From Escherichia phage SR04: a DNA stretch of 40,594 nucleotides. Made by a program: the position numbers and the translations under genes. The first letter of the stretch is position 1. Each line of letters opens with the position of its first letter. Location of the stretch: sequence record OQ870567.1. One strand, 5' to 3'. The notes under the pieces are model-generated. The model did no database searches. It saw only the letters and a program-made list of their open reading frames with translations, and had not been told where the DNA came from. This document shows, in pieces, positions 9,602 through 38,519 of the stretch.

Positions 9602-10056
9602 ACGTCCTCCTTAGAGATAGTGAATAGTTGAAAACGCTCACCAGTTACTAGGCTTACAGTCCAATCATCATGGAATTTAGCCCCAAGCAACTTCAAGAAT
9701 TTAATGTGAGACTTATTGCCTGACCACACGTAGTTCCAGATGGTCCCGTATTGGTCTAACATTAAGTCCCTGTATTCAGAGATACGCTTTATGAACTCTC
9801 GCTTCTCTTTAGGTCTCATCTTATAGACAAGACCGGAAGTCAAGAACCATACATTATCCCCTTGGTTTCCACCATAGGCAAACACTTCGCCTACACCGTT
9901 CGTTAAAACCACAGATGACGGAGATAGGTGCTTAAGCAGTCTTTCAGAGAGACCAACGGTTGACCCATAGTTTGCTTTGCACTCATTAACATCATCTGCT
10001 GAAAGATGCCACAGAAAGTAGTGGACATCTGGTTCCGTAGCCTTGCGAATATACAT
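9586..10056 (-). CDS. Internal virion protein A (gp13-like, 156 aa)
   Basis: Positional homologue between the phi13 promoter and gp14; ATG start, AGGAG RBS. Confidence 0.6.
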   Translation of the reverse strand: MYIRKATEPDVHYFLWHLSADDVNECKANYGSTVGLSERLLKHLSPSSVVLTNGVGEVFAYGGNQGDNVWFLTSGLVYKMRPKEKREFIKRISEYRDLMLDQYGTIWNYVWSGNKSHIKFLKLLGAKFHDDWTVSLVTGERFQLFTISKEDVCASQ

Positions 10057-10085
10057 AAAGTCTCCTTATAACCTTAAGGGCCTAT

Positions 10086-10108
10086 AGTCCCTATAGTGAT
10101 AGTTAAGG
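10086..10108 (-). promoter_or_regulatory. Phage RNAP promoter (phi13-like)
   Basis: Minus strand TTAACTATCACTATAGGGACT about 35 nt upstream of the gene 13 ATG. Confidence 0.7.
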
Positions 10109-10132
10109 TAAATCTATAGGCCCTTCAATAAG

Positions 10133-12490
10133 TTAGACGGAACGAGCTTTCTTAGCGTATGACGCCTCCCAGCCACACCCAACGATGGACACTGGGGTAG
10201 GATAGTCGGACTCTAAGGTTAGACTCGTGGTTAATGCGTTACCATTCATAGCGAAGCGATACTGCCCGTCACCAATGTTAGTAGTCCCTATGGTTTGCTG
10301 ACCAAGGGTGTACCCATTAAAGGTGTTAACGAACTCTCGCTCACCGTTTCTGACAATGAGTCTCAGAGCGCCAGTGTCCTTGTAGTTGACCCAAGCCCGA
10401 CGAAGCTGTAGACGACCAGTGTCTTCAGACTGGGTGCCACTATCATCTTCAATCTTAATCAGGAACCGTGAGAACTTGTAGGACATCAGATAGGGCCGCC
10501 CGATGAAAACTGTACGTCCTGACCAATCGCCGTTGAGGGTAATCACAGTAGAGATACTGGTCAAGTCCCCAAGGTCCAAATAAGCACCCTGACTGTCAAT
10601 CAGATAGTACCGACCGGGAGACGGAGCATTACCACCATAAGCAGCACCAATGTCAACCGTAGTCTTATATGTGTCAGCATTAAACGAGCCAATTGGGATG
10701 ACCATAGACACCTTGGAGTCAACGTGGAGTCTATATGGCTCTGACGGAAAGTCAGTTGCCTCCTTGATGAACTTAAGGTGCTCAAGGTCCACGCCGCCTT
10801 GGTGCTGACGAACAATGAACATGGTAGAGCCAATCGACGCAGACGCCAGAATCTTATCAGCTTTAGGGAACTCCCAGTGAGACCAAGAGGCTTGAAGCTG
10901 TACGCCGTCTTTAAACAAGAACTTGTAGAGGTAGATTCGGTTGTATGCACCTGTAGAGTTGACGCAGATGTAGTTCTCAGTCCCTGTTCCCTGAATGTCA
11001 AACACCCCGTTAGGGATATAGGATAGTACGTGACCAGTGGTATCATCGGCATCCTTCACGTCAGACACATCTGCTACAGCGAAGTATCGCTTAATGCTGG
11101 TGAATGACCCACGAGGCGCTGAGAAGAAGACTGAGCGTCCTACAGCGAACGGTCTGGCATTATCTCCTAAGGCAAACTCTGAGCCTACATCAAGCTGGAT
11201 AGACTTCGAGGTAAGGACCCCTGAGCTTGTCATCACGAACTGAACCTCATCAGACCAAAGTAGTAGCTGCTCGCTAAACGGAACGGCATACTTAAGGATT
11301 GAGATTCGAGGGTGACTTACAGCTACATCAATAGGGTCATCATCACTCAGTGTCGCCACACTCTTAGGGAAGAACGCAAAGTAGCTGGCTGAACGGCTCA
11401 TGATTAGGTTCTCACCCGACAAGAACCCTAGCCTGTTCCTGTAGAAGAACACATCATTAATCGCAGCATCCACGAAGCTAGGCATAGGGTTTGTGTCATC
11501 GTTACCAGCACCACGCTTGGACCAATCCAGAGTCTTGAACTCAAAGGAGCCATCAGATTGTCGTACCAGAGCGTGTGGCATTGTGGTGTTATCGAACCCA
11601 GTGACAACTCCCGGCTCCACTGTCTCCTTCCACGTCTTAGTGTTGGAGTCATACATCACGTAGTATTCATCGGCGCTACTGTTTGTCTCACCTTGAATCT
11701 TAATGATATACCCATTAGGAGCGGCAAGAGGTAGTTTAGAGATTGTCTGCACAGTGTCTAGGACTGGGCTTATTAGCTGGTTAGCGTAGCCATCCTCCGT
11801 CTCCACTGAGTTAATGTCTGTCCCTGAAGGAGCTGTGATTAGCAGGAAGCCAGACCCAAGGTCAAACGTGAAGGTAGGATAGGAAGCAACAAGAAGGTCT
11901 CTCAGAGCTGCACCAATGGCTTGAGCGTCCACCTTAGGTGGGTCATTCTCGGCATCATTACCTGCTGGTAGCTTATGCGAGACCTTAACGCCACCGTTGA
12001 TTCCCACCTTAAGGGTTCGACCATACTGTCCACCACGTAGGTTAATTAAAGCTCGTGCTTTGCGGTTATAACCAGAGTGTGACTTCTCGCTTCCACCTTT
12101 GACGACAACCTTACGGTTAACGACGAACGTATAGTCTGCCACGGTAACGACACGGATGTCATCTCGTGGGTTGGAGGACTTAACGTAGTCTACCGAACCT
12201 GACACTGAGTATTGATTACCACTCAAGTCAACTACCTGAATGTTTGACCCATTGAACACGATGTAATACTGCTCCTGCTCATCACGGTTAATCAGGTGGA
12301 ACTTAGGGTTGCTTCCAACGTCGATGTTAAGACGTCGCTTGAAGACTGTAGGTGGGCGCTTCTGGAGGCCATCACTCTCTGATGACCAGCAGTTAACCTG
12401 TTCCTCGCCTTGGTCTGAGAACCTAAGTATATCAGGCTGTTGGCTAATGCCACCTTTAAGGTTCTTGATTGATTGAGTAATAAGCGGCAT
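10133..12490 (-). CDS. Tail tubular protein B (gp12-like, 785 aa)
   Basis: N-terminus M.LI.QSIKNLKGGISQQPDILR and RLQLRRAWVNY, IVGCGWE are near-identical to T7 gp12. Confidence 0.9.
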   Translation of the reverse strand: MPLITQSIKNLKGGISQQPDILRFSDQGEEQVNCWSSESDGLQKRPPTVFKRRLNIDVGSNPKFHLINRDEQEQYYIVFNGSNIQVVDLSGNQYSVSGSVDYVKSSNPRDDIRVVTVADYTFVVNRKVVVKGGSEKSHSGYNRKARALINLRGGQYGRTLKVGINGGVKVSHKLPAGNDAENDPPKVDAQAIGAALRDLLVASYPTFTFDLGSGFLLITAPSGTDINSVETEDGYANQLISPVLDTVQTISKLPLAAPNGYIIKIQGETNSSADEYYVMYDSNTKTWKETVEPGVVTGFDNTTMPHALVRQSDGSFEFKTLDWSKRGAGNDDTNPMPSFVDAAINDVFFYRNRLGFLSGENLIMSRSASYFAFFPKSVATLSDDDPIDVAVSHPRISILKYAVPFSEQLLLWSDEVQFVMTSSGVLTSKSIQLDVGSEFALGDNARPFAVGRSVFFSAPRGSFTSIKRYFAVADVSDVKDADDTTGHVLSYIPNGVFDIQGTGTENYICVNSTGAYNRIYLYKFLFKDGVQLQASWSHWEFPKADKILASASIGSTMFIVRQHQGGVDLEHLKFIKEATDFPSEPYRLHVDSKVSMVIPIGSFNADTYKTTVDIGAAYGGNAPSPGRYYLIDSQGAYLDLGDLTSISTVITLNGDWSGRTVFIGRPYLMSYKFSRFLIKIEDDSGTQSEDTGRLQLRRAWVNYKDTGALRLIVRNGEREFVNTFNGYTLGQQTIGTTNIGDGQYRFAMNGNALTTSLTLESDYPTPVSIVGCGWEASYAKKARSV

Positions 12491-13056
12491 TAGTCCCTCC
12501 CAATGTCGGACATCATGTTGTAGCGACCAGTATCCATCTCGTATTCCATGACCTGCTGATAGAGTTCTGCTTCCTGCTCACGAAGGTACAGTTCAGACTC
12601 TGGGCTACCGAAGAACTTAGCGTTGAACTCACGGCTAGCTTTAGTGACGATGTAGTCCCTGAAGACCACAGGCATCTCGGAGAATGGCTTCATCTCCACA
12701 AGCTCTACCGTGATAGGGTCGGTGAAAGTGGTGGACTGAGTGGATAAGTCGTACAGGTATCCACCCATGTTGCTGTAGTAGCTGGTGGCCCCGGCAGTCA
12801 TTACACGAAGGTATGACGGTAGGAATCGAATCCTGTTGTCTTGGACATCAGGTGTCAGGACGGCAGCTTCATTAATGTTAAAGTTCCATCCTTTAGCTTG
12901 TACCTGACGATTGACACGATGCAGGATACGTTGAGCGTTCGATACGTCAGCGTTCCCCTCGTCAAGCTGTAGGACTGCTGGTTCACCGATAGCTGCTAAC
13001 ATATCGTTGATGGCGTCTAAGTCATCGTTAGCATTCAGTGGAATGTACTGAGCCAT
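12490..13056 (-). CDS. Tail tubular protein A (gp11-like, 188 aa)
   Basis: IVTKASR.FN..FFG.PE and MEYEMD motifs as in T7 gp11; TAATG coupling with gene 12. Confidence 0.85.
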   Translation of the reverse strand: MAQYIPLNANDDLDAINDMLAAIGEPAVLQLDEGNADVSNAQRILHRVNRQVQAKGWNFNINEAAVLTPDVQDNRIRFLPSYLRVMTAGATSYYSNMGGYLYDLSTQSTTFTDPITVELVEMKPFSEMPVVFRDYIVTKASREFNAKFFGSPESELYLREQEAELYQQVMEYEMDTGRYNMMSDIGRD

Positions 13057-14628: not shown

Positions 14629-14651
14629 TCTCCCTATAGTGATAGTTTAGT
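14629..14651 (-). promoter_or_regulatory. Phage RNAP promoter phi10-like (strong late promoter)
   Basis: Minus strand CTAAACTATCACTATAGGGAGACC; the TATAGGGAGACC start region is as at T7 phi10. Confidence 0.8.
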
Positions 14652-15615: not shown

Positions 15616-15638
15616 AGTTCCTATAGTGATAGTTTAGG
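15616..15638 (-). promoter_or_regulatory. Phage RNAP promoter (phi9-like), overlaps the portal stop codon
   Basis: Minus strand CCTAAACTATCACTATAGGAAC. Confidence 0.7.
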
Positions 15639-18436: not shown

Positions 18437-18459
18437 AGTCCCTATAGTGATAGTTTAGT
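18437..18459 (-). promoter_or_regulatory. Phage RNAP promoter (phi6.5-like)
   Basis: Minus strand CTAAACTATCACTATAGGGACT. Confidence 0.7.
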
Positions 18460-24930: not shown

Positions 24931-24953
24931 CATCCCTAAGGTGATAGTTTAGG
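24931..24953 (-). promoter_or_regulatory. Variant phage RNAP promoter (CACCTTAGGG in place of CACTATAGGG)
   Basis: Minus strand CTAAACTATCACCTTAGGGATG; the -17 to -5 region matches the other promoters but -4 and -3 differ. Confidence 0.5.
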
Positions 24954-25188: not shown

Positions 25189-25650
25189 TTAACCACGGTC
25201 GGAAGTGACCAGTTCATTGGTAGACAGCCAGCGTTGCAAGTCAAAACTTGGACACGCCTTAGGTGCTACGTCATGGTGTGCTTTGATTTCTGCCTGAGGA
25301 TACAGGACCTTCAGGTCAGCCAGCTTGTTTCGCAGGGAGTTCATCTGGGCTGGAGTGAAGTTAGCTTCAAACTGACCCTTAGCGTCAATTCCCCCTACAA
25401 GGCAGACGCCTACGGACCGGGAGTTCCAATCCTTAACGTGTGACCCTACGACATTTACCGGGCGACCCTCTTCCACAGTACCATCACGCTTGATGATAAA
25501 GTGGTAGCCTACATCCAGCCAACCTTGCTGCTTGTGCCACATACGGATGGTCTCTACCCCGATGTCCATCTCTGGCTTGGTAGCCGAACAGTGGACGAAG
25601 ATAGCGTCAGTCCGGGACCGTGGGTTGAATTGCACCTTACTCACCATCAT
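25189..25650 (-). CDS. N-acetylmuramoyl-L-alanine amidase / T7 lysozyme (gp3.5-like, 153 aa)
   Basis: TDAIFVHCSATKP, WLDVGYHFIIKRDGTVE.GR, GVCLVGGID.KG.F.ANFTPAQM, AHH.VAPKACPSFDL.RW...NELVTSDRG are near-identical to T7 gp3.5. Confidence 0.95.
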   Translation of the reverse strand: MMVSKVQFNPRSRTDAIFVHCSATKPEMDIGVETIRMWHKQQGWLDVGYHFIIKRDGTVEEGRPVNVVGSHVKDWNSRSVGVCLVGGIDAKGQFEANFTPAQMNSLRNKLADLKVLYPQAEIKAHHDVAPKACPSFDLQRWLSTNELVTSDRG

Positions 25651-27067: not shown

Positions 27068-27090
27068 CTGTCCTACAGTGATAGTTTAGG
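27068..27090 (-). promoter_or_regulatory. Phage RNAP promoter (phi2.5-like; CACTGTAGG variant)
   Basis: Minus strand CCTAAACTATCACTGTAGGACAG upstream of the SSB gene. Confidence 0.6.
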
Positions 27091-28270: not shown

Positions 28271-28293
28271 TTGTCCTATAGTGATAGCTTAGG
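28271..28293 (-). promoter_or_regulatory. Phage RNAP promoter (phi1.5/1.6-like)
   Basis: Minus strand CCCTAAGCTATCACTATAGGACA. Confidence 0.65.
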
Positions 28294-28310: not shown

Positions 28311-28349
28311 GACGCAAAGAAACCCAGCAGTCCGAAGACCACTGGGTTG
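28311..28349 (-). terminator. TE-like early terminator for host RNAP
   Basis: Minus strand AACCCAGUGGUC-UUCG-GACUGCUGGGUUUCUUUGCG: 10-bp stem, UUCG tetraloop and U-tract, closely like T7 TE. Confidence 0.7.
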
Positions 28350-28352
28350 ACG

Positions 28353-28814
28353 TTATAATGAATCTCTTAAGGCTACTGCCTCGGCTATGGTATCGAACGT
28401 ACCGTATGACTTACGCTTTATCCGCAGTTGCCAGCGACCAGTTGATTTCTGGTATTGAACGTATTTCTCTCCAGATTGGCAGTGACTACGGGTTGGAACG
28501 TTAGTTAGGTTCACCGCCTGAGTCACACACCTGAGGTTCTCAATCCTGTTATCCGAAGGGTCCCGGTTGATATGGTCAATCACCATCCCTTCTGGTATAG
28601 GACCGTTGGTTAGTTCCCAGACTACTCGGTGGGCCAGCAGTTGGCCCTTTGTCGTACTTAGAATCCAGTACCCATCCTTTCGTCTATAACCAAGATGTCT
28701 ACCGTTTAGGTTGGAGACTCCAGAGGGAGCCGCCCTGTCTGCTTTAAATCTTGACCGTAGGGTCGTCCTCAGTTCCACGCCACTGGTCGAACGAGGGATG
28801 CCGTAGTAAGCCAC
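28353..28814 (-). CDS. HNH homing endonuclease 1 (153 aa), inserted between the ligase gene and TE
   Basis: HNH-type motif [34 protein letters not shown]...N; GTG start with GGAGGAG RBS inside the ligase 3' end. Confidence 0.8.
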   Translation of the reverse strand: MAYYGIPRSTSGVELRTTLRSRFKADRAAPSGVSNLNGRHLGYRRKDGYWILSTTKGQLLAHRVVWELTNGPIPEGMVIDHINRDPSDNRIENLRCVTQAVNLTNVPTRSHCQSGEKYVQYQKSTGRWQLRIKRKSYGTFDTIAEAVALRDSL

Positions 28815-29814
28815 TTGGTGTCTCCTCCATGTAGGTAATCTGGCAGGCCCAGCCTTTATAATAATCAGGGTCGGACTTAACGTTTTCGGTGAACTCTGAC
28901 ATTAGGGCGCGACTAATGTTAGTTGCGGAGACCTCCATCCCGTTCTCAAGCATAACGTCAAAGCCGATGACCATACCTTCGTTGGCTAGACCTTCTGTTC
29001 CCCATATAGGCCGTACAACGTGACCGTCTGCCTCTTCGCTTGGTTTCATCTTGAACATACCTGACTTCTTGCCACGCTTCCAGCGTCCCAGTGGGTCTTT
29101 AACTACCAGACCCTCATGGCCCTCTTCTCTCTTCTTCTCATACAAGTCAGTAAGCTCGTCTAAGCTAAACACTGTATGACTCTCAGATAGCACCCAGTCG
29201 ATTTCCGGGAAGTATTTCTGGAGGAGAGGGACGACAGCTTCGGCCTTCAGTCGCGTTACGCTGTGGATAGGCCCTTCAGCTTTTGGGTCGAGGATGACGT
29301 TAAGGTCAATAATCCCGTATACAACCACTTGGATGTGCTCGGCTGCCAGTAGGAACGGAAGTTTAGACTTAGCGCCTGTAGACTTACGAGGCATCTCGTC
29401 AAACTTTACGTCATTGAACTTTAGGTTATCAGGCTTCAGCCACTTCGTGCGAATAAGTCCTGAGGATGTGTTGAAGTCTACACCCTTTACCATCACCTCG
29501 CCGTCAATCATCAGGCCAGTACCTTCGTATCCAGCCTGTTTAAGGAACCATCGCCAGTCGCTAGCCTTGGCAGCACCGATGTCGTCACCGGATGTGCCCA
29601 GCCAGCTTAGGGCCGGAAGCTCTTTAGACTCACGGCTCAACCATTGAGTCTCACCAGTAGGGAAGACCGGAAGGTTCAACCGCACACCGTCATACTTCAC
29701 TTCAGCTTCCAGTGACCCAGCAGCTTCCAAAGCCTTCTTAACGCCAGACTCAGAGTAATCTACAGCGCGGTGCGGGTTAGTTTTAATAGTCGTAGTCATT
29801 ATGATTTGCTCCAT
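28744..29814 (-). CDS. ATP-dependent DNA ligase (gp1.3-like, 356 aa; start may be the second Met at 29799)
   Basis: IKTNP, adenylation motif KYDGVR, DGE.MVKGVDFNT.SGL.RTKW, EGHEGL.VKDP, RHPSF align with T7 ligase. Confidence 0.95.
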   Translation of the reverse strand: MEQIIMTTTIKTNPHRAVDYSESGVKKALEAAGSLEAEVKYDGVRLNLPVFPTGETQWLSRESKELPALSWLGTSGDDIGAAKASDWRWFLKQAGYEGTGLMIDGEVMVKGVDFNTSSGLIRTKWLKPDNLKFNDVKFDEMPRKSTGAKSKLPFLLAAEHIQVVVYGIIDLNVILDPKAEGPIHSVTRLKAEAVVPLLQKYFPEIDWVLSESHTVFSLDELTDLYEKKREEGHEGLVVKDPLGRWKRGKKSGMFKMKPSEEADGHVVRPIWGTEGLANEGMVIGFDVMLENGMEVSATNISRALMSEFTENVKSDPDYYKGWACQITYMEETPSGLLRHPSFDQWRGTEDDPTVKI

Positions 29815-30062
29815 GTGTCGAGTCGGTCAGCGAGACCGTTAAGGAAGTCGGTTGCAGTGTTGTACAGTACGTCTTCATCGTAGCGTGCGAAGGTTACAAG
29901 CGCGAAGATGTTACCAGCTCGGTCCTCGACCCTGAGTCTCATACACTCTTGGCGTGACGAAAGGTCTTGAAACTCCTGAGATATAACAGCGAAGTCTAAC
30001 TGATAAAGCCTGTTACATGCTGCTCTGAAAGCGTTGAGGTTGCCGCTATAAAGTCGGCCCAT
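29799..30062 (-). CDS. gp1.2-like protein (host dGTPase inhibitor homologue, 87 aa)
   Basis: MGRLYSGNL.AF.AA.N.L.QLD.AVI, C.RLR.EDR.GN and DEDVL.N..TD.LN align with T7 gp1.2. Confidence 0.85.
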   Translation of the reverse strand: MGRLYSGNLNAFRAACNRLYQLDFAVISQEFQDLSSRQECMRLRVEDRAGNIFALVTFARYDEDVLYNTATDFLNGLADRLDTWSKS

Positions 30063-30066
30063 AGCG

Positions 30067-30246
30067 TTATGCTCCTACGAAGTATTTCTCTTGGTTGACC
30101 ATAGAGTCTTTTCCTTCAGCGTTACGGAAAGCACCCTTGACACCACCGCCACGCTTGGTCTTGTTCAGCTTGCGGCCCTTCGGAATATAATCTTCAGTCT
30201 GCTGACGTTCACGGATGCGCTCGAAGTTGATAGTGTTCTGATACAT
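30067..30246 (-). CDS. gp1.1-like small basic protein (59 aa, MYQNTINFERIRERQQTEDYIPKGRKLNKTKRGGGVKGAFRNAEGKDSMVNQEKYFVGA)
   Basis: Hand translation; KGRKLNKTKR is shared with T7 gp1.1; AGGAG 7 nt upstream. Confidence 0.6.
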   Translation of the reverse strand: MYQNTINFERIRERQQTEDYIPKGRKLNKTKRGGGVKGAFRNAEGKDSMVNQEKYFVGA

Positions 30247-30280
30247 GGTGTAGCTCCTGATTGAATGAGTTAGGGTTAAT

Positions 30281-30320
30281 CATGAAGGCCACGACTTTGA
30301 GTCATGACCTTGAGTCTAAT
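30281..30320 (-). promoter_or_regulatory. RNase III-type processing hairpin (R1.1-like)
   Basis: Minus strand AAGGUCAUGAC-UCAAA-GUCGUGGCCUU, an 11-bp stem; same position and stem sequence as T7 R1.1. Confidence 0.5.
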
Positions 30321-30339
30321 CCTATAGTGATAGTTTAGG
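30317..30339 (-). promoter_or_regulatory. Phage RNAP promoter (phi1.1-like)
   Basis: Minus strand CCCTAAACTATCACTATAGGATTAG. Confidence 0.7.
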
Positions 30340-30414
30340 GTTAACCTCTTCTGCGTTGGATTAAAGTGAATACTGCGAGTGCTCCTAGCCACAAGGCCAG
30401 TGACTGTAGGTCTG

Positions 30415-30615
30415 TCATTTGGTTGCCTCTTCCCGTAGGGCCTTCTCGTGTGACCACTGGATTACCTGAATCAGCTCCTTTTGGCTGATACCCTTGGCAT
30501 TAGCTGTTCCAGTCGGGACCATAGTAACCTTTACCAGACCCTTGCCAGCCACCGTGGTTACGGTCACTACCTTGTTGCCGCCAGATACGTTTGATACACG
30601 GTGTGCGAATTGCAT
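30415..30615 (-). CDS. Hypothetical protein (66 aa) immediately downstream of the RNAP gene
   Basis: ATG start with AGGAG RBS; before the phi1.1-like promoter. Confidence 0.5.
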   Translation of the reverse strand: MQFAHRVSNVSGGNKVVTVTTVAGKGLVKVTMVPTGTANAKGISQKELIQVIQWSHEKALREEATK

Positions 30616-30633
30616 GTTGTCTCTCCTGTGTTA

Positions 30634-33315
30634 TTAAGCGAATGCAAAGTCTGAAGACAAGATGTCCTCAATATTCAGTTTACCTTTCTTCGGAAGCTCA
30701 GGCAACTTGTCGCGCTGGCTCTCATGAAGCTGGTATTCAAACTGCTCGTAGAAGTCAAGCAGCACATCGTTGTCGCGGTAGGTCTCGACCATCGTCTCAC
30801 GGATACCACGGAACAGATACTCAGCGTCAGCCGGGATGGTCCCGAAGCTATCATGAATCACTGCGAATGACATCACGCCATACTTTCGGTGCGTGTGGAC
30901 TACAGTCTTGCGGAGGTGGCTACCATCTTGTGAGTGGACGAAGTTCGGGCTAATGCCTGACTCCTGCTTGTGCTTGTCAAGCTCTTTCTTCGTGCCTTTG
31001 TTGACCGTAGGTTGAAGGTTGAATGACCCTAAGAACATCAGATTCAGACGAGTGGTATCCTTCTTGCGGTATTCCTGCCAGACCGGGAAACCATCAGGTG
31101 TTACCCAATGTACCGGAAGGCAAGGCTTCAGGATTTCTCCAGTCTTCTTGTCCTTCACTTCAGCAGCCAGCAGCTTGGCAGCACCCTGAAGCCACTTCAT
31201 CGCGTCAACCGCAGCAACTACGGTCACGCTCACAGCTTCCCAAATCATCTTAGCCATGAAGCGGGACGCTTGGCTTGGTTCGGTGAACATAGCGCCAGAC
31301 CCTGAGTCAATCGCCGGCATCACGATGTCCTCGTAAACTTGGTCAGCGAAGCCGTACTCTTTCGACCCGTATGCCAGAGTCATGACTGAACGCTTAGTGA
31401 CCTTGCGTGACATACCGTATGTCAACCACTGACGGGCCAGCTCTCGTGTCCCCAGCTTGATACGTTCGGTAATCTCACCAGTTTTCTTATCCTCGTGAGT
31501 GACCATCTCGTTGTCAGTACCGGTAATCAGCAGGACTTTAAGCTCCTCCTCAATGCGGTCAGACACAATGCGGTAGATGTCTTGTACCATGCCGGATGGC
31601 GTCAGGTTTACTGCATGTCCACCGATGTGGTCACGAAGCATCGCACTGAAGTGCTGAATACCAGAGCATGACCCATCGAACGCTATCGGCAGTGAGCAGG
31701 AGTAAGACAATCCGTGGCGCATTACACCAGCATACTCGAAGCAGAACGCAAGGAAGCAGAACGGAGAGTCTAACTTGCCCCACCACTCAATACTATCCAT
31801 CGGTGCCTTAGCAGCAGCCATGATGTTTTCGTGGTTGTCTTCCACCCACTTGATGCGCTCCTCGAAGGTGACTTTATCAACACCCGCGCAGTTTGCACCA
31901 TGGACCTTCAGCCATTTGAAACCGTCAGCACCAATAGGCTTACCGACTGCCAGAGTCAGGAGACCCTTCTGCATGTCGTTACCCTGAGGGTTGAACATCG
32001 GCACAGCGTAGACTCGACCGCGCCAGTCCATGTTGTATGGAAACCAGATGGCCTTGAACTGAGAGAACTTATTCGCTTGGTTGATGATAAAGCTCAGTGA
32101 TAATCTGCGTGACTGTCGGGCCTTCTCGCGGCGATAGATACCAGCAGCAGCCTTCTTCCATGCCTTGAGTTCCTCCTCGGTCTCACCAGCATAGTCCTCA
32201 GGCTTCAGCGGTTCCATCTGAGGGATGTCATCAATAGGCGTGTTGTTCAGCTTCTCGACCATGTTCACCACGTTCAATACCTTCTTGTTCACTTTCCAAG
32301 GTGTATTTTGAATGATGTTCACAGCGTCATAGACTTCAGGCATGTACACGTCTTCATAACGTGCTACCGCAGACTTAGACCCTAAGCGAATCAATGGTAA
32401 CGGTCTGCGACCTTTGGCCCAGTACCCACCGCCTACTACACCAGTCCACGGTTTAGGTGGAACGACGCAAGGCTGATAGACTGGCGCAATACCCGCAAGG
32501 CTGAATCCACGTTGTGCCATCTTCTTTACCCAGAAGTCTGACAGGTGGACCATCTCAACGTCAGCCGCCGCATTGCCAGCACCATAACGCTTAAGCTCGA
32601 CCAGTTGTGTGGACTGGATGACAATCTCGAGCATCTTGATGCCAACGTGTACCGCTTCGGTCGGACTCCAAGTCCCCCACGCATCTTCCAGTTGGCCTTG
32701 CTCCAGCATGGATGCCTCTACAGCTTGCATGTAGGCTTTCTTGTAGGATGCCCCAGCTCGCTTGTTCAGGTTCTCAGCTATCGCCTTCTTGAAGTGCTCC
32801 TTCTCCTTGTCACGGATGCGACCGAAGCGGATTTCGTCCTCAAGTGTGCGACCTAACGCTGAGGCCATAGGTGTAATCGGTATCCCTTCAGGCTTGACCA
32901 GCTTGGAGAGTATGACCTTCAGTATGATAACCGCAGCGGACTCACAGGAGATGCGCATAGAGCGGTCCTTGACGGCCTTCTCTTCAGTGCTCAACGTGGT
33001 GAACGCTACGCTAGGACGAGAGGTTGACAGCTTCCCGTCTTGGCCTTCGTGCCACTCCTTGACTGCTTGCGCAATCTTAGGCACCAGAGTCTGCATCAAA
33101 GGCTTGGCGACCTGATTGTCTGCCAGTTCCCCGCGCTCGGTCTGGCGCTCAAGGTTCTTGATGAAACGTCGCTCGCCTTCTGTGTAGGCCTCATGCTCAA
33201 GCTGAAGCTGTTTGACTGCAAGGTCTTGCCCGTAGTGGTCTGCCAGCAGGTTAAACGGCTCAATGGCGTTCGACACATCAGAGAAGTCGTGTTTATCAAT
33301 AGAGATGACGCTCAT
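30634..33315 (-). CDS. DNA-directed RNA polymerase, single-subunit (gp1-like, 893 aa)
   Basis: Near-collinear with T7 RNAP: DFSD, PFN.LADHYG, FQPCVVPPKPWTG, WFPYNMDWRGRVYA, FDGSCSGIQHFSAMLRD, HDSFGTIPADA, C-terminal FAFA. Confidence 0.97.
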   Translation of the reverse strand: MSVISIDKHDFSDVSNAIEPFNLLADHYGQDLAVKQLQLEHEAYTEGERRFIKNLERQTERGELADNQVAKPLMQTLVPKIAQAVKEWHEGQDGKLSTSRPSVAFTTLSTEEKAVKDRSMRISCESAAVIILKVILSKLVKPEGIPITPMASALGRTLEDEIRFGRIRDKEKEHFKKAIAENLNKRAGASYKKAYMQAVEASMLEQGQLEDAWGTWSPTEAVHVGIKMLEIVIQSTQLVELKRYGAGNAAADVEMVHLSDFWVKKMAQRGFSLAGIAPVYQPCVVPPKPWTGVVGGGYWAKGRRPLPLIRLGSKSAVARYEDVYMPEVYDAVNIIQNTPWKVNKKVLNVVNMVEKLNNTPIDDIPQMEPLKPEDYAGETEEELKAWKKAAAGIYRREKARQSRRLSLSFIINQANKFSQFKAIWFPYNMDWRGRVYAVPMFNPQGNDMQKGLLTLAVGKPIGADGFKWLKVHGANCAGVDKVTFEERIKWVEDNHENIMAAAKAPMDSIEWWGKLDSPFCFLAFCFEYAGVMRHGLSYSCSLPIAFDGSCSGIQHFSAMLRDHIGGHAVNLTPSGMVQDIYRIVSDRIEEELKVLLITGTDNEMVTHEDKKTGEITERIKLGTRELARQWLTYGMSRKVTKRSVMTLAYGSKEYGFADQVYEDIVMPAIDSGSGAMFTEPSQASRFMAKMIWEAVSVTVVAAVDAMKWLQGAAKLLAAEVKDKKTGEILKPCLPVHWVTPDGFPVWQEYRKKDTTRLNLMFLGSFNLQPTVNKGTKKELDKHKQESGISPNFVHSQDGSHLRKTVVHTHRKYGVMSFAVIHDSFGTIPADAEYLFRGIRETMVETYRDNDVLLDFYEQFEYQLHESQRDKLPELPKKGKLNIEDILSSDFAFA

Positions 33316-33384
33316 ACTTAAAGTCCTTGTTATTAGTCTTTCACTTAAAGTCTCTTTGGTCTTTCACTTGGAGTCTTAGACCTT

Positions 33385-33407
33385 GAGTCCTATAGTGATA
33401 GTTAAGT
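33385..33407 (-). promoter_or_regulatory. Phage RNAP promoter about 75 nt upstream of the RNAP gene
   Basis: Minus strand ACTTAACTATCACTATAGGACTC; full match to the promoter core. Confidence 0.6.
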
Positions 33408-33412
33408 CATAA

Positions 33413-33673
33413 TTACTTGCATATCAGTGGGTTAGCGTGAAGATGACTGAAGTCACCGTGAGTCGTGTGCTTGATGTCTGACCGTTGGTCTATCGCCTTC
33501 CAGCCTGAGACTAAAAGTTTACCATCGTCAGTGATCGGTCGTCCACCAAACGCCAGACTCATCAGTTCGTACTTATTGCCCTCAGCCCTCATGCGGCGAT
33601 GTAAGAACACGTCACGCTCTATTTGCTCTACACGGCTACGGATAGATGGTTTGTTAATGTATACGGTTTTCAT
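33413..33673 (-). CDS. Hypothetical early protein (86 aa), at the position of the T7 gene 0.7 kinase but not a kinase
   Basis: ORF with a TAATG overlap to the upstream gene; no kinase motifs. Confidence 0.5.
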   Translation of the reverse strand: MKTVYINKPSIRSRVEQIERDVFLHRRMRAEGNKYELMSLAFGGRPITDDGKLLVSGWKAIDQRSDIKHTTHGDFSHLHANPLICK

Positions 33674-33870
33674 TACAGTTTGCTCCCAATAGTTGCTATA
33701 TCCCAGACGTTCGCTAAGTTGCGCATGAATCGTCCGTTAGGTTGACGTACAGTCCAGCGGACCATACGTACATAGTTGAATTTATAGACTTTACGCGCTT
33801 TGTTGATGTCTCTCACCAGCACGTAGGCGATAAGTCCATAGCCTATGGCTATCAATAATGAAGATATCAT
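33673..33870 (-). CDS. Small early membrane protein (65 aa, MISSLLIAIGYGLIAYVLV...)
   Basis: N-terminal transmembrane segment; ATGA overlap with the preceding small ORF. Confidence 0.5.
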   Translation of the reverse strand: MISSLLIAIGYGLIAYVLVRDINKARKVYKFNYVRMVRWTVRQPNGRFMRNLANVWDIATIGSKL

Positions 33871-33956
33871 AGTGATTTCCGTTTAATACAATCGTATACC
33901 CCATAACCTATCATCAAGATAACTGGCGCTAGACATACCCAGTAACCGATGTTCAT
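33867..33956 (-). CDS. Small early membrane peptide (29 aa, MNIGYWVCLAPVILMIGYGVYDCIKRKSL)
   Basis: Hand translation; GGAG 6 nt upstream; shares an IGYG motif with the next ORF. Confidence 0.4.
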   Translation of the reverse strand: MNIGYWVCLAPVILMIGYGVYDCIKRKSL

Positions 33957-33984
33957 AATTAACTCCTATCAATTTAAGTGATAA

Positions 33985-34015
33985 TCTTTGAGGCCACCTA
34001 TCAGTCGTGACCTCT
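33985..34015 (-). promoter_or_regulatory. Hairpin GAGGUCAC-loop-GGUGGCCUC, possible RNase III site in the early transcript
   Basis: Related to the AAGGUCA...UGGCCUU hairpin family; intergenic. Confidence 0.3.
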
Positions 34016-34021
34016 CGTCTA

Positions 34022-34171
34022 TCACTCAGTGTGTAAGCTGTCGTGCATACGTTTGCGGCGCTTATAGACCACCTTCAGGAGACGCATAGACTCCTCGTGG
34101 TTTAATCGCCCGGTCTTGACCATAAGCCGGGCGGTGGTGACGTGGTGCTGGCAGAGACCATAAGTTACCAT
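34022..34171 (-). CDS. Small basic early protein (49 aa, MVTYGLCQHHVTTARLMVKTGRLNHEESMRLLKVVYKRRKRMHDSLHTE)
   Basis: Hand translation; TGATG overlap with the ocr stop; GAGGAGG 8 nt upstream. Confidence 0.45.
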   Translation of the reverse strand: MVTYGLCQHHVTTARLMVKTGRLNHEESMRLLKVVYKRRKRMHDSLHTE

Positions 34172-34506
34172 CACTCGCAGTCCTCCTCTTCAGCCTCAAA
34201 CCAGACCACCTCAGAGCTATTAGACACATCGTTATACAATGCCTCATAGATGCGAGCTTGTAGTATACGCGTTATGTCCTTGGTCTCAGGCATCAGCCCA
34301 GAGTCTTCGAACTCATGGTCAATACCATCAGCAGCCATCACCGTGAAAATCTCGTGGTAATAGTGCGGAACATTACCGTCTACGACCTCATGTAGCGCAT
34401 CGCTGTAGTCATCGCCTTCAGCTATTTCGTCGCACTGAATACGCTCATTGAACAGCTCAACGGTTGCAGCCAGCAGCTCATAGTATGCGTTAGCGTTACG
34501 TTCCAT
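34171..34506 (-). CDS. ocr: Ocr-like anti-restriction protein (gp0.3 homologue, DNA mimic, 111 aa)
   Basis: D...A.H...D..VPHYY..IF.VMA..GID.EFEDSGLMP.TKD..RILQARIYE and an acidic C-terminus align with T7 Ocr. Confidence 0.85.
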   Translation of the reverse strand: MERNANAYYELLAATVELFNERIQCDEIAEGDDYSDALHEVVDGNVPHYYHEIFTVMAADGIDHEFEDSGLMPETKDITRILQARIYEALYNDVSNSSEVVWFEAEEEDCE

Positions 34507-34579
34507 AGTTATATCCTCTCAGTTGTTAGTGACTATCAGTCAGGCCGCTATGAGTCTAACGACCTGTAGTTAATCACTC

Positions 34580-34834
34580 TCAGTTAGCGAAATAAGGAGC
34601 TGAGACGCCAGCTGTAGGACTCACGGCTATCTGCGCGTCTATCAGGTAGGTCTCGTTATCTATACGCACAGTATCTACGCTGTAGTTGCTGAACGGCTTG
34701 CTTGAGACCTTGCGCACTACCACACGGTGACGCGCTCCTGTCATCTCTTTAAGCTGAATCCACGCATAACCTTTAGTGTTCACGAATACTTCATTACGAT
34801 TAGTGATTGTGCTTAAGTGTTTCATAGTGTCCAT
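34580..34834 (-). CDS. Hypothetical early protein (84 aa; start possibly the second Met), first gene after the early promoter
   Basis: ORF upstream of ocr, preceded by a repeated hairpin element. Confidence 0.45.
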   Translation of the reverse strand: MDTMKHLSTITNRNEVFVNTKGYAWIQLKEMTGARHRVVVRKVSSKPFSNYSVDTVRIDNETYLIDAQIAVSPTAGVSAPYFAN

Positions 34835-35012
34835 CCGTTAAGTTAGTGACTATCAGTCAGGGCCTTTGAGTCTACATCTGAAGGCCCTGTAGTTAGTCGC
34901 TATCGGCGTACATTAAGAGTTTATCCAGATTGTTAAAGAGCATTCCCTTCAGTCAGAGGACTTCAGGTAGACCATTTCAGTGTTGGTCATCACCGTTGTT
35001 TCGATGTGGTAC

Positions 35013-35042
35013 AGCTTACATCGTATCGTTACATCTTGTCAA
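35013..35042 (-). promoter_or_regulatory. Sigma70 early promoter (A3-like): -35 TTGACA, 18-nt spacer, -10 TAAGCT
   Basis: Minus strand GTAGTTGACAAGATGTAACGATACGATGTAAGCTGTACCACATCG resembles the T7 A3 promoter region. Confidence 0.45.
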
Positions 35043-35399
35043 CTACTTTCTGTCATCTGCCTGTTGTTCGTATGACTGATCAGGCTGTCTACTTAACCGG
35101 GATGATCCGGCGTCTTCACTATCCGGTTGTTGCCGTGTCGTGTTGACGGAAGCTATTAAGCCATAGCCTAGACCTATAGTCAATAGGTAATTTGAAATAA
35201 TATTGATTAAGCTATCGTCGGCCTCATGGTTTAAGAGGATATAGTCTTTGACTAACATGTCTTTGACCTTAAGTCTATAGCTTTGTGTCTATTAACTGTT
35301 GGTATCTGACTGTAGGTGTTGGTGTCTTATGGTTGAGACTGTAGGTTAGTGAGACTGTAGGTTAGTTAGACTGTAGGTGTAGGACGTAATGTTATACTA

Positions 35400-35619
35400 T
35401 AACACTATACAGATAGAGACTCAGAGACAGACCTATAGCCCCTACCTATCGTCCTTCCCTAAGCCATAGCCTAGACCTATCGTTGACCTGAAGTCCTGAC
35501 CATCGGTCCAACCTTATGACAGACTGGCTGTGACTGCAAGGAGCAGTAACTGGGGTAGGGCCTTTTGTCTGGACTGAAAGAGGGCCTATGGGGAGACTTG
35601 AGGTTCTTGAACTGTGAGA
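35400..35619. repeat. Predicted genome terminus and direct terminal repeat (collapsed to one copy in this circular assembly)
   Basis: Minus strand from about 35619 reads TCTCACAGTTCAAGAACCTCAAGTCTCCCCATAGG, like the T7 left end TCTCACAGTGTACGGACCTAAAGTTCCCCCATAGG. It is flanked by CCTACAG repeat clusters (35308-35382 and 35655-35703), analogous to the T7 CCTAAAG arrays. Confidence 0.4.
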
Positions 35620-35856
35620 TGTGGTCTCAAACTTTTGGTCCAAAACTCATCGTCACTACTGTAGGCCACAGCCACTGTAGGTCAAGGACCGTAGGTCAGG
35701 CGACACTAGGATAGACCAATAAGTAGGATGACCCTAAGTGAGCTTCTCTTAAGGTGTTACCTAAAGTCCTTGACTGCAGTAGCTAAGGTCAGTAGAGTAG
35801 CGTCAGCTATGAACTGACCTTAGGTCTTCCGCTCATGAATCGTTACCATGATTGCG

Positions 35857-36015
35857 TTAATTACACTGAGAGACCAGAGAGCATACGAGAGTCTCGACCC
35901 ACCCGACCCACTGACTTCCAGCAGTAACGCCAGCAGCAAGTAGAACAGCAGCAAGAAACCTGTATGTAGCTCGATTGGTCGCCAGAGCTTTAAGTACAGC
36001 TTTGGTCTTTGCCAT
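35857..36015 (-). CDS. gp19.5-like small protein (52 aa, MAKTKAVLKALATNRATYRFLAAVLLAAGVTAGSQWVGWVETLVCSLVSQCN)
   Basis: Hand translation; the TYRFL motif and position after the phiOR-like promoter match T7 gp19.5. Confidence 0.55.
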   Translation of the reverse strand: MAKTKAVLKALATNRATYRFLAAVLLAAGVTAGSQWVGWVETLVCSLVSQCN

Positions 36016-36160
36016 ATGCTACATACCTCCTGTATCTATGGTCGGTGACTATCTGTATTGGAGGGATTATGATTAATATCACCTCCTCTATAGGGAGACT
36101 TAGAGTCTTATCTATATGCTAACTTTTAGTCGGCATACTATAAGGTCCCCCTAGGTCCCC

Positions 36161-36183
36161 CATCCCTATAGTGATAGTTAAGT
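36161..36183 (-). promoter_or_regulatory. Phage RNAP promoter (phiOR-like) between the terminase/HNH genes and gene 19.5
   Basis: Minus strand TTAACTATCACTATAGGGATGGG. Confidence 0.7.
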
Positions 36184-36196
36184 TAACCTATTGAAT

Positions 36197-36739
36197 TTAC
36201 TTGTGGTTTCTCTTGGCCCTATCACGCTTAGGGGACCGTAGGGAAACAGCGTACTCCTTGTGCTTCTCTTCACGTAGTGCTGTCAGCCATGCTTCAAGTT
36301 CTATCACAGAGTCGGAAGTCTTTGTGTAGCACTTACCCTTAAGTCGCAACTGAGCGCGATACTTTCCGGTAGGCTTGAAGAAGCTGATACCCTTAGGGAG
36401 ACCATTAGTCTCGCCACCTCCTGAGTTCCATCTGTTCTCCAATGCTGTTACTAACCTGTAGTTATCCGGCCTGTCATCAAGCCTATCACCATTGATATGG
36501 TCAACCATCATGCCAGAAGGTATTCGACCAACGGCTAGGCTGTAGATGATTCTGGCACGTCTATAGCGACTACCAAGGACCTTCACGATTGCGTACCCAG
36601 ACGGATGGACTGAATGTCCCATGACCTCGCCTGGCTTCTTGTTAGAGCCTTTATAGGGCTTCTTGCACACCAACTCACCATCTACATAAGCATAGTGATT
36701 AAAGAGGGCCACCCTGTCGATGGCCTTCTGTTTACTCAT
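36197..36739 (-). CDS. HNH homing endonuclease 2 (180 aa)
   Basis: HNH motif MVDHINGDRLDDRPDNYRLVTALEN; GGAGG RBS 6 nt before the ATG. Confidence 0.8.
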   Translation of the reverse strand: MSKQKAIDRVALFNHYAYVDGELVCKKPYKGSNKKPGEVMGHSVHPSGYAIVKVLGSRYRRARIIYSLAVGRIPSGMMVDHINGDRLDDRPDNYRLVTALENRWNSGGGETNGLPKGISFFKPTGKYRAQLRLKGKCYTKTSDSVIELEAWLTALREEKHKEYAVSLRSPKRDRAKRNHK

Positions 36740-36752
36740 ATTTCTCCTCCTA

Positions 36753-38519
36753 TTAGTGGAACGTAACGTATGACCCTAGTCCCAGCTCGTCGTCCGTATC
36801 GTGAGTTACCCGGACCCCATTGTCCCAGAACTCAGTGTGGATGGACTCGAAGCCTTTCCGTGGGTTCTCCATCTGTTCCTCCAGCCACTCCTCAGTGACT
36901 TCACGTTCGCCTTTGTTGGCATCCTTAGCCATCGACTCAACGAAGAACTGTACACCGATAGCCAGCGCATCAAGTCGGTCATCGTGTGCCAAGGCTCCAC
37001 GCTCACGAGAGATACGGGTCATCTGGTAGAAGAGAGAGTAGATAGGGTTACGAACACCATCCTTATCAGAGGCTGACTGGTAGTCTTGGACGATAGCAGC
37101 AGCGTTAACGATAAGTCTGTGAGACCCCATGATAGGCTCCAGAACGTCACAGATGCGGAGTTCTTTCTGACCCTTACTCTTCACTTCAGTTACAGCAGCA
37201 GGATGGATACGGGCAGCTACAGGCTTGAATAGCTCAAGGTACATACCATCGCCGAAGTTACCCTCAATAACGTATTCGTTGACCTTCCACTTACGACCAA
37301 TCTTAGCCAAGGCTTCCAGCGTAGAGTCTTCATAGCCACCGCGCATACCACCAACTTCCATAGCGAAGATGTAGCCGTTGAGCTGGTACAGTACCGCATA
37401 ACCAGTTTCATCCTTACCACGACCACTAGGGTCAATGACCAGAATCTTCTGGGTGTACGAACTGAAGGCAGAACCTACAGTCTGATACGTGTGGTACGAG
37501 TCACCCATGAGTCCAACGTTAGGAACGTCCTCACGCTTGTTCTGAGGGTTCGGCAACCATTGGTAGACCATTGGGCTAGACTCTGGGTCCAAGTCTGCTA
37601 CGATAAGGTCACGGAGCTTCAGAGGGTACTTCTCTGCATCACTCAGGTTCGGGTTAAGCATGAACTGTAGAGCGAAGCCAGCTTTACCATAGGACAGTTC
37701 ACGTTCCTTCAGGTCCGTATCATCGAATCGTACTTCATCGGTAGGACGCCAGTAGAAGGACTCAGGGTCCTCTTCAAGCTCTGCCTGAAGCATAGGAGCC
37801 AGACGGTCGCCGTAAGACTGCCAGTCCTTCTTATCGCGTGGGTAGCGAGCGGGCCAGATGGTAGTGGTATATCCACGACCTTCCAGCTCACGATACAAGG
37901 TCATCTCGTTCTGAGGAGTACCCAGATAGATGATTGTACCTCCCGGCTTCAGGATAGCGTCGAACTCTTTCACAAGCTCTGACAGACGGTCTCGTGCAGC
38001 CTGAGTCGCTGAGTTGTTCGGAACCTCCACGTCATCGGCAATCAGGATGTCAGCACGACTACCAGTCAACTGACCAGTGATACCAACGGACTTAACTGAA
38101 GGTGAGTGGTCTGGCTTGGCTGGTCCAACGTCGAAGCTGATAACCGCATCTCGCTGCCCCTGCTTAGGTTTGAGTTCCTGAAGCTGAGGCATGAGGTCGA
38201 TGATTCGCTTGATGAAGATGGAGTTCGCATCGGCTCGTTCCTTTGAGGCCGACACAATCATGAACTTCAAGTCTGGGTTGTTCCATAGCTTCCAGACCAC
38301 GAAACCACAGGTCAGAAACGACTTGCCAATACCACGGAACGCCTGAAGTATGAATCGGCGATTATCCCCCGCAGCCAGCTTCTTACACATATCTATCTGG
38401 CAGCGGGTTGGAACCGGAAGGCTAAGAGCTTTCCAGAGAACGAAGATGAAGAACACGAAGTCGTCCCTCATCCTTTGGGTCATTTCTGCCTGTCTTTCAA
38501 CAGGTGTTTTCTTAGACAT
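36753..38519 (-). CDS. Terminase large subunit (gp19-like, 588 aa)
   Basis: Size, position and general similarity to T7 gp19. Confidence 0.9.

Follow-up and report, generated by a model that had tools for sequence, protein, structure and literature searches.

Ahead of its RNA polymerase (RNAP) gene, Escherichia phage SR04 carries a true copy of its own promoter, in the right place and orientation to transcribe that gene. The 23-mer, ACTTAACTATCACTATAGGACTC, occupies positions 33385 to 33407 of the minus strand, which is the coding strand, and spans -17 to +6 with the +1 G at 33390 (T7 convention). We consider it likely that this 23-mer is a functional class II-type promoter ("phi1") for the phage's own RNAP, lying in the gap between genes 0.38 and 1 of the early operon that the host transcribes.

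The promoter upstream of gene 1

The window analyzed here is the whole 40,594-bp stretch of DNA (OQ870567.1). It represents the entire genome, circularly permuted, of a K1F-like coliphage (Kayfunavirus, Studiervirinae), and all of the genes are on the minus strand. The 4 kb surrounding the promoter were 93 to 97% identical to many Kayfunavirus records, K1F included, and the region with the gene 1 promoter was present in 221 phage records. Gene 1 (30634 to 33315, minus strand) encodes a single-subunit RNAP of 893 amino acids, with Pfam matches to RNA_pol (2.8e-106) and RPOL_N and 64% identity to T7 RNAP.

The ATG of gene 1 is at 33315, exactly 75 nt from the +1 G. The 23-mer is intergenic and begins 5 nt past the stop codon of the early gene on its 5' side, a gp0.38 homologue (33413 to 33673, minus strand). 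No terminator-like site was found between 33390 and 33315; the polymerase gene of the window therefore has its own promoter upstream with no terminator between the two. Positive autoregulation would be a reasonable consequence of this position.

To score the site, we used a leave-one-out weight matrix built from the other 10 copies of the promoter in the window. The gene 1 promoter scored 32.1 bits within a family range of 25.7 to 35.7 bits, and the top nonfamily site on either strand reached 15.4 bits with the same matrix. In 100 shuffles, no matches to the 23-mer were expected by chance. From -17 to +2 the sequence agrees with the consensus, with a T at -14, a base present in 3 of the 11 copies. 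The start bases are GGACTC, so that +3 to +6 read ACTC and not the GAGA of the strongest copy (transcription start site [TSS] 14634). This start resembles those of the early and middle promoters (GGACAA, GGACAG, and GGATTA). Since it differs from the strong GGGAGA, the promoter may be weak. The original prediction of a full-consensus promoter about 75 nt before the RNAP ATG held for location and distance, but full consensus applies to -17 to +2 only.

A host sigma-70 promoter was another candidate for this site, given the label in phage PE3-1 (KJ748011.1). There, the same 23-mer at 2874 to 2896 (L025:2874-2896) is called a "host RNAP promoter," and the other 23-bp copies in that genome are labeled phi6.5, phi9, and phi. 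We rejected this assignment; no sigma-70-like match was found at the gene 1 promoter site in the window, and the annotated 23-mer is exactly the phage promoter. The PE3-1 label looks like an annotation slip.

Promoter family and layout of the early operon

The promoter core, CTATCACTATAGG, has nine exact occurrences in the window and two near-copies with one or two changes, and all 11 are on the minus (coding) strand. Promoters of T7-group RNAPs are expected to be oriented with the genes and to sit between genes or at gene ends, and the gene 1 copy has both properties. Next on the 3' side of gene 1 is the homologue of T7 phi1.1A (30317 to 30339, TSS 30322). It is followed by the promoter at 28271 to 28293 (TSS 28276), which is the first past the early terminator, and by two variant copies, one with CACTGTAGG (27068 to 27090, TSS 27073) and one with CACCTTAGG (24931 to 24953, TSS 24936), the latter being the weakest of the family at 25.7 bits. 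Farther along are the promoters at 18437 to 18459 (TSS 18442) and 15616 to 15638 (TSS 15621), the copy before the capsid gene with the full GGGAGA start (14629 to 14651, TSS 14634), and those at 10086 to 10108 (TSS 10091) and 2809 to 2831 (TSS 2814). The remaining copy is a phiOR-type promoter (36161 to 36183, TSS 36166), about 547 nt before the genome left end, which alignment to EcoDS1 places at about 35619. All of these are on the minus strand. Two weak promoter-like sites fell far below the family range, namely, CCTAAGATATGACTATAAGATAG (TSS equivalent 18413, minus strand, 15.4 bits), 29 nt downstream of the 18442 promoter, and AGTGAACTATCACTGTATGAGTA at 1594 (13.1 bits).

The early operon that holds gene 1 starts at an A1-type host sigma-70 promoter (TTGACT...; 35147 to 35183, minus strand), which matches the first annotated host promoter of EcoDS1. 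An A2-type sigma-70 promoter (TTGACA...) follows at 35004 to 35042 on the same strand. As read from the sequence, the host-transcribed operon would end at an early terminator (TE)-like hairpin, AACCCAGTGGTCTTCGGACTGCTGGGTT followed by TCTTT (28311 to 28350, minus strand). The ligase gene precedes this hairpin, and an HNH endonuclease gene (28353 to 28814, minus strand; Pfam HNH_3, 1.4e-22) is inserted between the two. The equivalent TE position has been described in K1F (PMC4099482). A second open reading frame, at 36197 to 36739 (minus strand) after gene 19, has a counterpart that is annotated as an HNH endonuclease in PE3-1.

Two features of T7-like early regions were searched for without a match. 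No phiOL-type copy was found between the terminal repeat and host promoter A1 in the window (35183 to 35619), and none is annotated in EcoDS1; phiOL-type promoters are present in T7, T3, and most of the surveyed relatives but absent from K1F-like genomes. Likewise, the early region of the window had no open reading frame of sufficient length for a gp0.7-type kinase. Just inside the left end, at 35330 to 35395 (minus strand), we observed short tandem-like repeats, CCTACAGTCT(A/C)AC(T/C)AAC. They resemble the repeats adjoining the terminal repeat in T7-group genomes, and such repeats are among the top repeated k-mers in several relatives.

Conservation and covariation with polymerase specificity

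We surveyed 80 IMG/VR loci with a de novo consensus scan and split them by RNAP identity to the window. A promoter of the phage's own consensus was found 75 to 102 nt before gene 1 in all 22 loci with an RNAP identity of at least 78%. Among the T7-, T3-, K11-, and KP32-like loci (58 to 64% RNAP identity), 0 of 58 had a phage promoter within 300 nt of gene 1, a count that covers only the retrieved loci of these four types, since the survey script requires CAC[TC]NNN[GA][GA] and misses promoters of the gh-1 and phiA318 types. The nearest upstream copies in those 58 loci were at least 600 nt away, mostly at about -2500 to -3000, where T7 and T3 have phiOL. The original prediction had it that the T7 RNAP gene is transcribed only by the host polymerase. 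T7 and T3 do lack a phage promoter within 300 nt of gene 1, but "only" is slightly too strong, as phiOL lies upstream of the whole early region and its transcripts could in principle read through gene 1. Some T7-, T3-, and KP32-like genomes (L067, which is T3-like, and L052, L059, L065, and L097) carry a phage promoter within the early region, 600 to 1,400 nt upstream of gene 1. Transcription into gene 1 by the phage polymerase may therefore not be limited to K1F-like phages.

The gene 1 promoter was also found in K1F, EcoDS1, PE3-1, Dev2, Kc166A, and ASO2B. The K1F promoter is identical to that of the window, and the two leaders are nearly the same. Among close IMG/VR relatives the promoter was present in 20 of 20, with one subgroup (L017 type) carrying a T-to-A change at -2 (CACTAAAGG), and ASO2B carries an A-to-T change at -3 (CACTTTAGG). 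These changes at -3 or -2 could lower promoter activity; however, other promoters in these genomes show similar variants. In the -2-variant subgroup, the other promoters keep TATA or show similar class II-type variants.

Some relatives have exchanged the specificity bases of the site. In L039 (IMGVR_UViG_3300045988_000030; RNAP at 10001 to 12664, 88% identity), all seven detected promoters, the gene 1 copy included, read ATTAAACCCTCACTATAGG, with a T3-like CCC at -11 to -9. The RNAP specificity loop of this phage is RLDLMF...TFRLQ, with the T3-type D and R, versus RLNLMF...SFNLQ in the window. L039 is thus an instance of natural coswitching of polymerase and promoter inside one genus. L038 (78% RNAP identity) has AAGGAAGGTACACTATAGG at the gene 1 site, and Kosakonia phage Kc166A has ATTAAACTATCACTGTAGG both at the gene 1 site and at its other promoters. 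In all three, the specificity bases at -12 to -8 change with the polymerase loop. The K1F element at -12 to -7 is recognized in vivo by T7 RNAP with the K1F specificity loop (PMC3458549).

The specificity changes in L039, L038, and Kc166A lie at -17 to -9, mostly outside the predicted RNA pairing described below, which argues for selection on promoter function, with RNA structure alone being insufficient. Together, these comparisons of sequence indicate that the gene 1 promoter has been kept as a promoter across relatives. The arrangement is a conserved, clade-specific trait of K1F-like phages that coevolves with polymerase specificity, a point added by this analysis.

The leader and a candidate R1 hairpin

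A transcript initiated by the phage polymerase would carry a gene 1 leader of 75 nt (33316 to 33390, minus strand), which is 66% A+T. The leader contains direct repeats, with two copies each of AAGTGAAAGAC and GACTTTAAGT (33316 to 33367, minus strand), and the Shine-Dalgarno sequence AAGGA of gene 1 at 33328 to 33324. The ribosome-binding context of gene 1, AAGGACTTTAAGTATG, differs very little from that of T7 gene 1.1 (GAGGACTTTAAGTATG), which is a nonorthologous gene. We also noted a three-codon mini-open reading frame, GTG AAA GAC TAA, inside the leader (33343 to 33332, minus strand).

At the position of the T7 and T3 RNase III site R1, an imperfect hairpin is predicted for the read-through (host-initiated) RNA (33338 to 33401, minus strand). 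In the predicted pairing, UCACU..GGA..CUC..GGUCU from the promoter core onward pairs with AGACC..GAG..CUU..AGUGA. The inner part of the hairpin, from 33390, would be present in the phage-initiated RNA also. The RNase III 5'-arm motif (TAGACTCAAGGTC type) is found here as an exact GACTCAAGGTC at 33389 to 33379, the first 11 bases of the transcribed region. This 11-mer had 17 matches with at most one mismatch in the window versus 0.9 expected, an enrichment of about 19-fold, and the motif also occurs in T7 R0.5 and R1.1. The canonical 3' arm (GTGGCCTTTATGATTA type, with an upper stem of about 10 bp) is absent from the gene 1 leader, which has AGACCAAAGAG instead and an upper stem of 5 bp plus 3 bp broken by a 3-by-3 loop.

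The other exact minus-strand copies of GACTCAAGGTC (30316, 22768, and 39487) sit in canonical hairpins like those of T7 R0.5 and R1.1. Three canonical T7-type RNase III hairpins (TAGACTCAAGGTCAT...GTGGCCTTTATGATTA) were observed on the minus strand, at 30271 to 30324 and in the regions of 22768 and 39487, corresponding to the positions of T7 R1.1, R4.7, and R18.5. The leader of the promoter with TSS 30322 is the R1.1-type hairpin, at about 30324 to 30271 (ACTCAAGGTCAT...GTGGCCTTCATGATTA).

The gene 1 leader fold gave z scores of -0.02 and +0.82 versus shuffled sequences, and scores ran from -0.02 to -1.9 across the stretches folded and the controls. The TCACT/AGTGA stem is kept in most K1F-like relatives; the alignment of relatives is shallow, and in MAFFT the 3' arms of the two main groups fall out of register. 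In the L017/Dev2 group, an 11-bp perfect stem is formed by UAUCACUAAAG with CUUUAGUGAUA, together with the T-to-A change at -2. An Rfam search of 29500 to 37000 returned no match. Since the fold is not clearly more stable than shuffled sequences, we regard an R1-like processing site in the gene 1 leader as no more than plausible. The run of the promoter straight into a predicted hairpin matches the cassette of promoter plus RNase III site found in T7 and T3.

Alternative roles for the site

The original prediction also raised replication priming like that of the T7 origin-associated promoters. If this were the main role, the promoter and the A+T-rich leader would serve as a primary or secondary origin, like T7 phi1.1A/1.1B, phiOL, and phiOR; the transcript would prime the leading strand, and transcription of gene 1 would be incidental. 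By what is known of T7, any phage promoter followed by A+T-rich DNA can act as a secondary origin. The leader from +7 to +76 is 66% A+T, whereas the genome averages 50%; this value ranks second among the 11 promoters and approaches those of T7 phi1.1B (73%) and phiOL (77%). K1F-like genomes have no phiOL copy, so that the gene 1 promoter could have assumed a phiOL-like role. However, the value is lower than for phi1.1B, and the true homologue in the window of the origin region T7 phi1.1A/R1.1 is on the 3' side of gene 1 (TSS 30322). T3 is arranged likewise, with its annotated primary origin after phi1.05. A T7-type primary origin comprises one or more promoters and a strongly A+T-rich stretch with primase sites, just after gene 1. 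Here, there is one promoter and not a tandem pair, it stands before gene 1, the leader is wholly occupied by the hairpin and the gene 1 ribosome-binding site, and just one primase-site-like pentamer per strand was found within 150 nt. We therefore think it improbable that priming is the main role. It is similarly doubtful that an active promoter has been selected either to supply the genes 3' of gene 1 (1.1, 1.2, ligase, and further ones) with their first class II promoter or to provide a defined, structured mRNA 5' end, with the extra RNAP being a neutral by-product. Such a role would fit the start region, which is like those of the other early and middle promoters (GGAC..), and the generic nature of the promoter-hairpin cassette in T7 and T3; another promoter with a canonical processing site already lies 3' of gene 1 (TSS 30322). 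That same promoter, right after gene 1, is already available for the downstream genes, which leaves the upstream copy unneeded for them, and the upstream position has nonetheless been kept in 22 of 22 relatives across three specificity changes.

The site might instead be conserved at the RNA level without being a promoter in vivo, as one arm of an R1-type processing hairpin or within a translational leader of the early mRNA made by the host. The core TCACT pairs with a downstream AGTGA in most K1F-like relatives, with the 11-bp stem of the L017/Dev2 group as the extreme case, and the leader carries the RNase III 5'-arm motif. However, positions -17 to -12 are unpaired and still follow each phage's own consensus, including the switches in L039, L038, and Kc166A, the fold does not clearly exceed shuffled sequence in stability, and a hairpin arm needs no 32-bit match to the promoter matrix. 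An element acting purely at the RNA level is very unlikely, since the site follows changes in polymerase specificity.

A model for gene 1 expression

A functional class II-type promoter at 33385 to 33407 remains our preferred reading, and it suggests the following model. Host RNAP would start at the A-type promoters (about 35183 and 35042) and transcribe through gene 1 to TE (about 28320), giving the first polymerase molecules. New phage polymerase would then start at G33390 and produce a gene 1 mRNA with the 75-nt leader, continuing into genes 1.1 to 1.3 and beyond. Gene 1 would thereby combine early and middle expression and come under positive feedback, and its transcription could continue after host RNAP shutoff. 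Host- and phage-started transcripts would have a similar structured or processed 5' end before a strong ribosome-binding site.

Such feedback would have a candidate brake. The window encodes a gp3.5-type amidase/lysozyme (25189 to 25650, minus strand; Pfam Amidase_2, 2.4e-16). In T7, the gp3.5 protein binds the phage RNAP and damps its activity. By analogy with the T7 class II promoters, any feedback on gene 1 would be expected to be damped as gp3.5 lysozyme accumulates. The literature searched yielded neither transcript maps nor in vitro transcription results for K1F-like phages.

A broader version of this model, which we put forward tentatively and think less likely than not to hold in full, is that gene 1 is a natural "autogene." It would be transcribed mainly by its own product once the first polymerase has been made by the host, and the arrangement would define Kayfunavirus. 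It would go with the absence of phiOL and of a gp0.7-type kinase here and with an altered timing and amount of RNAP compared to T7, and replication might have its main origin at this promoter as well.

An active promoter would set K1F-type phages apart from the textbook picture of T7, where the polymerase gene is an early gene transcribed purely by the host. Past the first minutes, their polymerase would amplify its own supply with no need for host RNAP. Such a departure would matter for models of T7-like gene expression and for phage therapy isolates of Kayfunavirus. It also bears on the use of the K1F RNAP and promoter as orthogonal parts, for which a natural cassette of leader plus promoter is at hand.

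Comparison with known systems

The gene 1 promoter was already known at the annotation level, so that the novelty implied by the original prediction does not stand; our work is mainly confirmation plus the evidence that the site tracks specificity. In EcoDS1 (NC_011042, Kayfunavirus), a "phi" promoter annotated independently by the depositors at 2244 to 2266 is the identical 23-mer in the same place, between gp0.38 and gene 1. It has no sequence difference from the 23-mer of the window, and the annotation carries neither a functional comment nor experimental support. The Sparklingdew paper (PMC13298934) lists the repeat, without discussion, as lying at the 3' end of the gene just before that for RNAP, and the ASO2B record quotes the K1F promoter consensus.

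Two phages outside the genus offer looser parallels. In gh-1 (NC_004665), which belongs to another genus of Studiervirinae, phi1 (939 to 961), annotated as a phage promoter and matching the consensus, precedes the RNAP gene by about 100 nt and adjoins an annotated R1 RNase III site. However, gh-1 has no early genes before gene 1, so that phi1 is also in the phiOL-like place; its R1 is upstream and not downstream of the promoter, and its promoter specificity is different. Vibrio phage phiA318 has a phage-specific promoter, phi-A8, upstream of its RNAP gene, and autoregulation was proposed by the authors (PMC4099482). This promoter differs in lying 1.4 kb upstream, before a kinase gene and the RNAP gene together, in a member of Colwellvirinae, and the annotated motif is short (14 nt).

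Within T7 and T3, there is a likeness to the cassettes T7 phi1.1A/R1.1 and T3 phi1.1/R1.1, phi1.3/R1.3, and phi3.8/R3.8, in which a promoter runs straight into an RNase III-type hairpin and the leader motif ACTCAAGGTC is shared with the window. Those cassettes are downstream of gene 1, and their hairpins have the canonical 3' arm GTGGCCTTTATGATTA, whereas the gene 1 leader of the window is without that arm. The region upstream of gene 1 in T7 and T3 corresponds in place, 60 to 100 nt before gene 1, and has a hairpin just before the ribosome-binding site. What T7 and T3 have there is the minor host sigma-70 promoter C plus R1, and not a phage promoter. Inspection by eye of the sequence upstream of T7 R1 for a relic of a phage promoter revealed no similarity.

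The circuit itself has an engineered counterpart. In the synthetic "T7 autogene," reportedly described by Dubendorff and Studier in 1991, T7 gene 1 is placed under a T7 promoter. Accounts of the concept appear in PMC6395690 and PMC1500874. The circuit logic is the same as that proposed here, with a polymerase gene on its own promoter and positive feedback. As an engineered circuit, the T7 autogene is tolerated in cells only with a repressor or lysozyme, whereas the window holds a natural lytic-phage arrangement, for which we infer the feedback from sequence.
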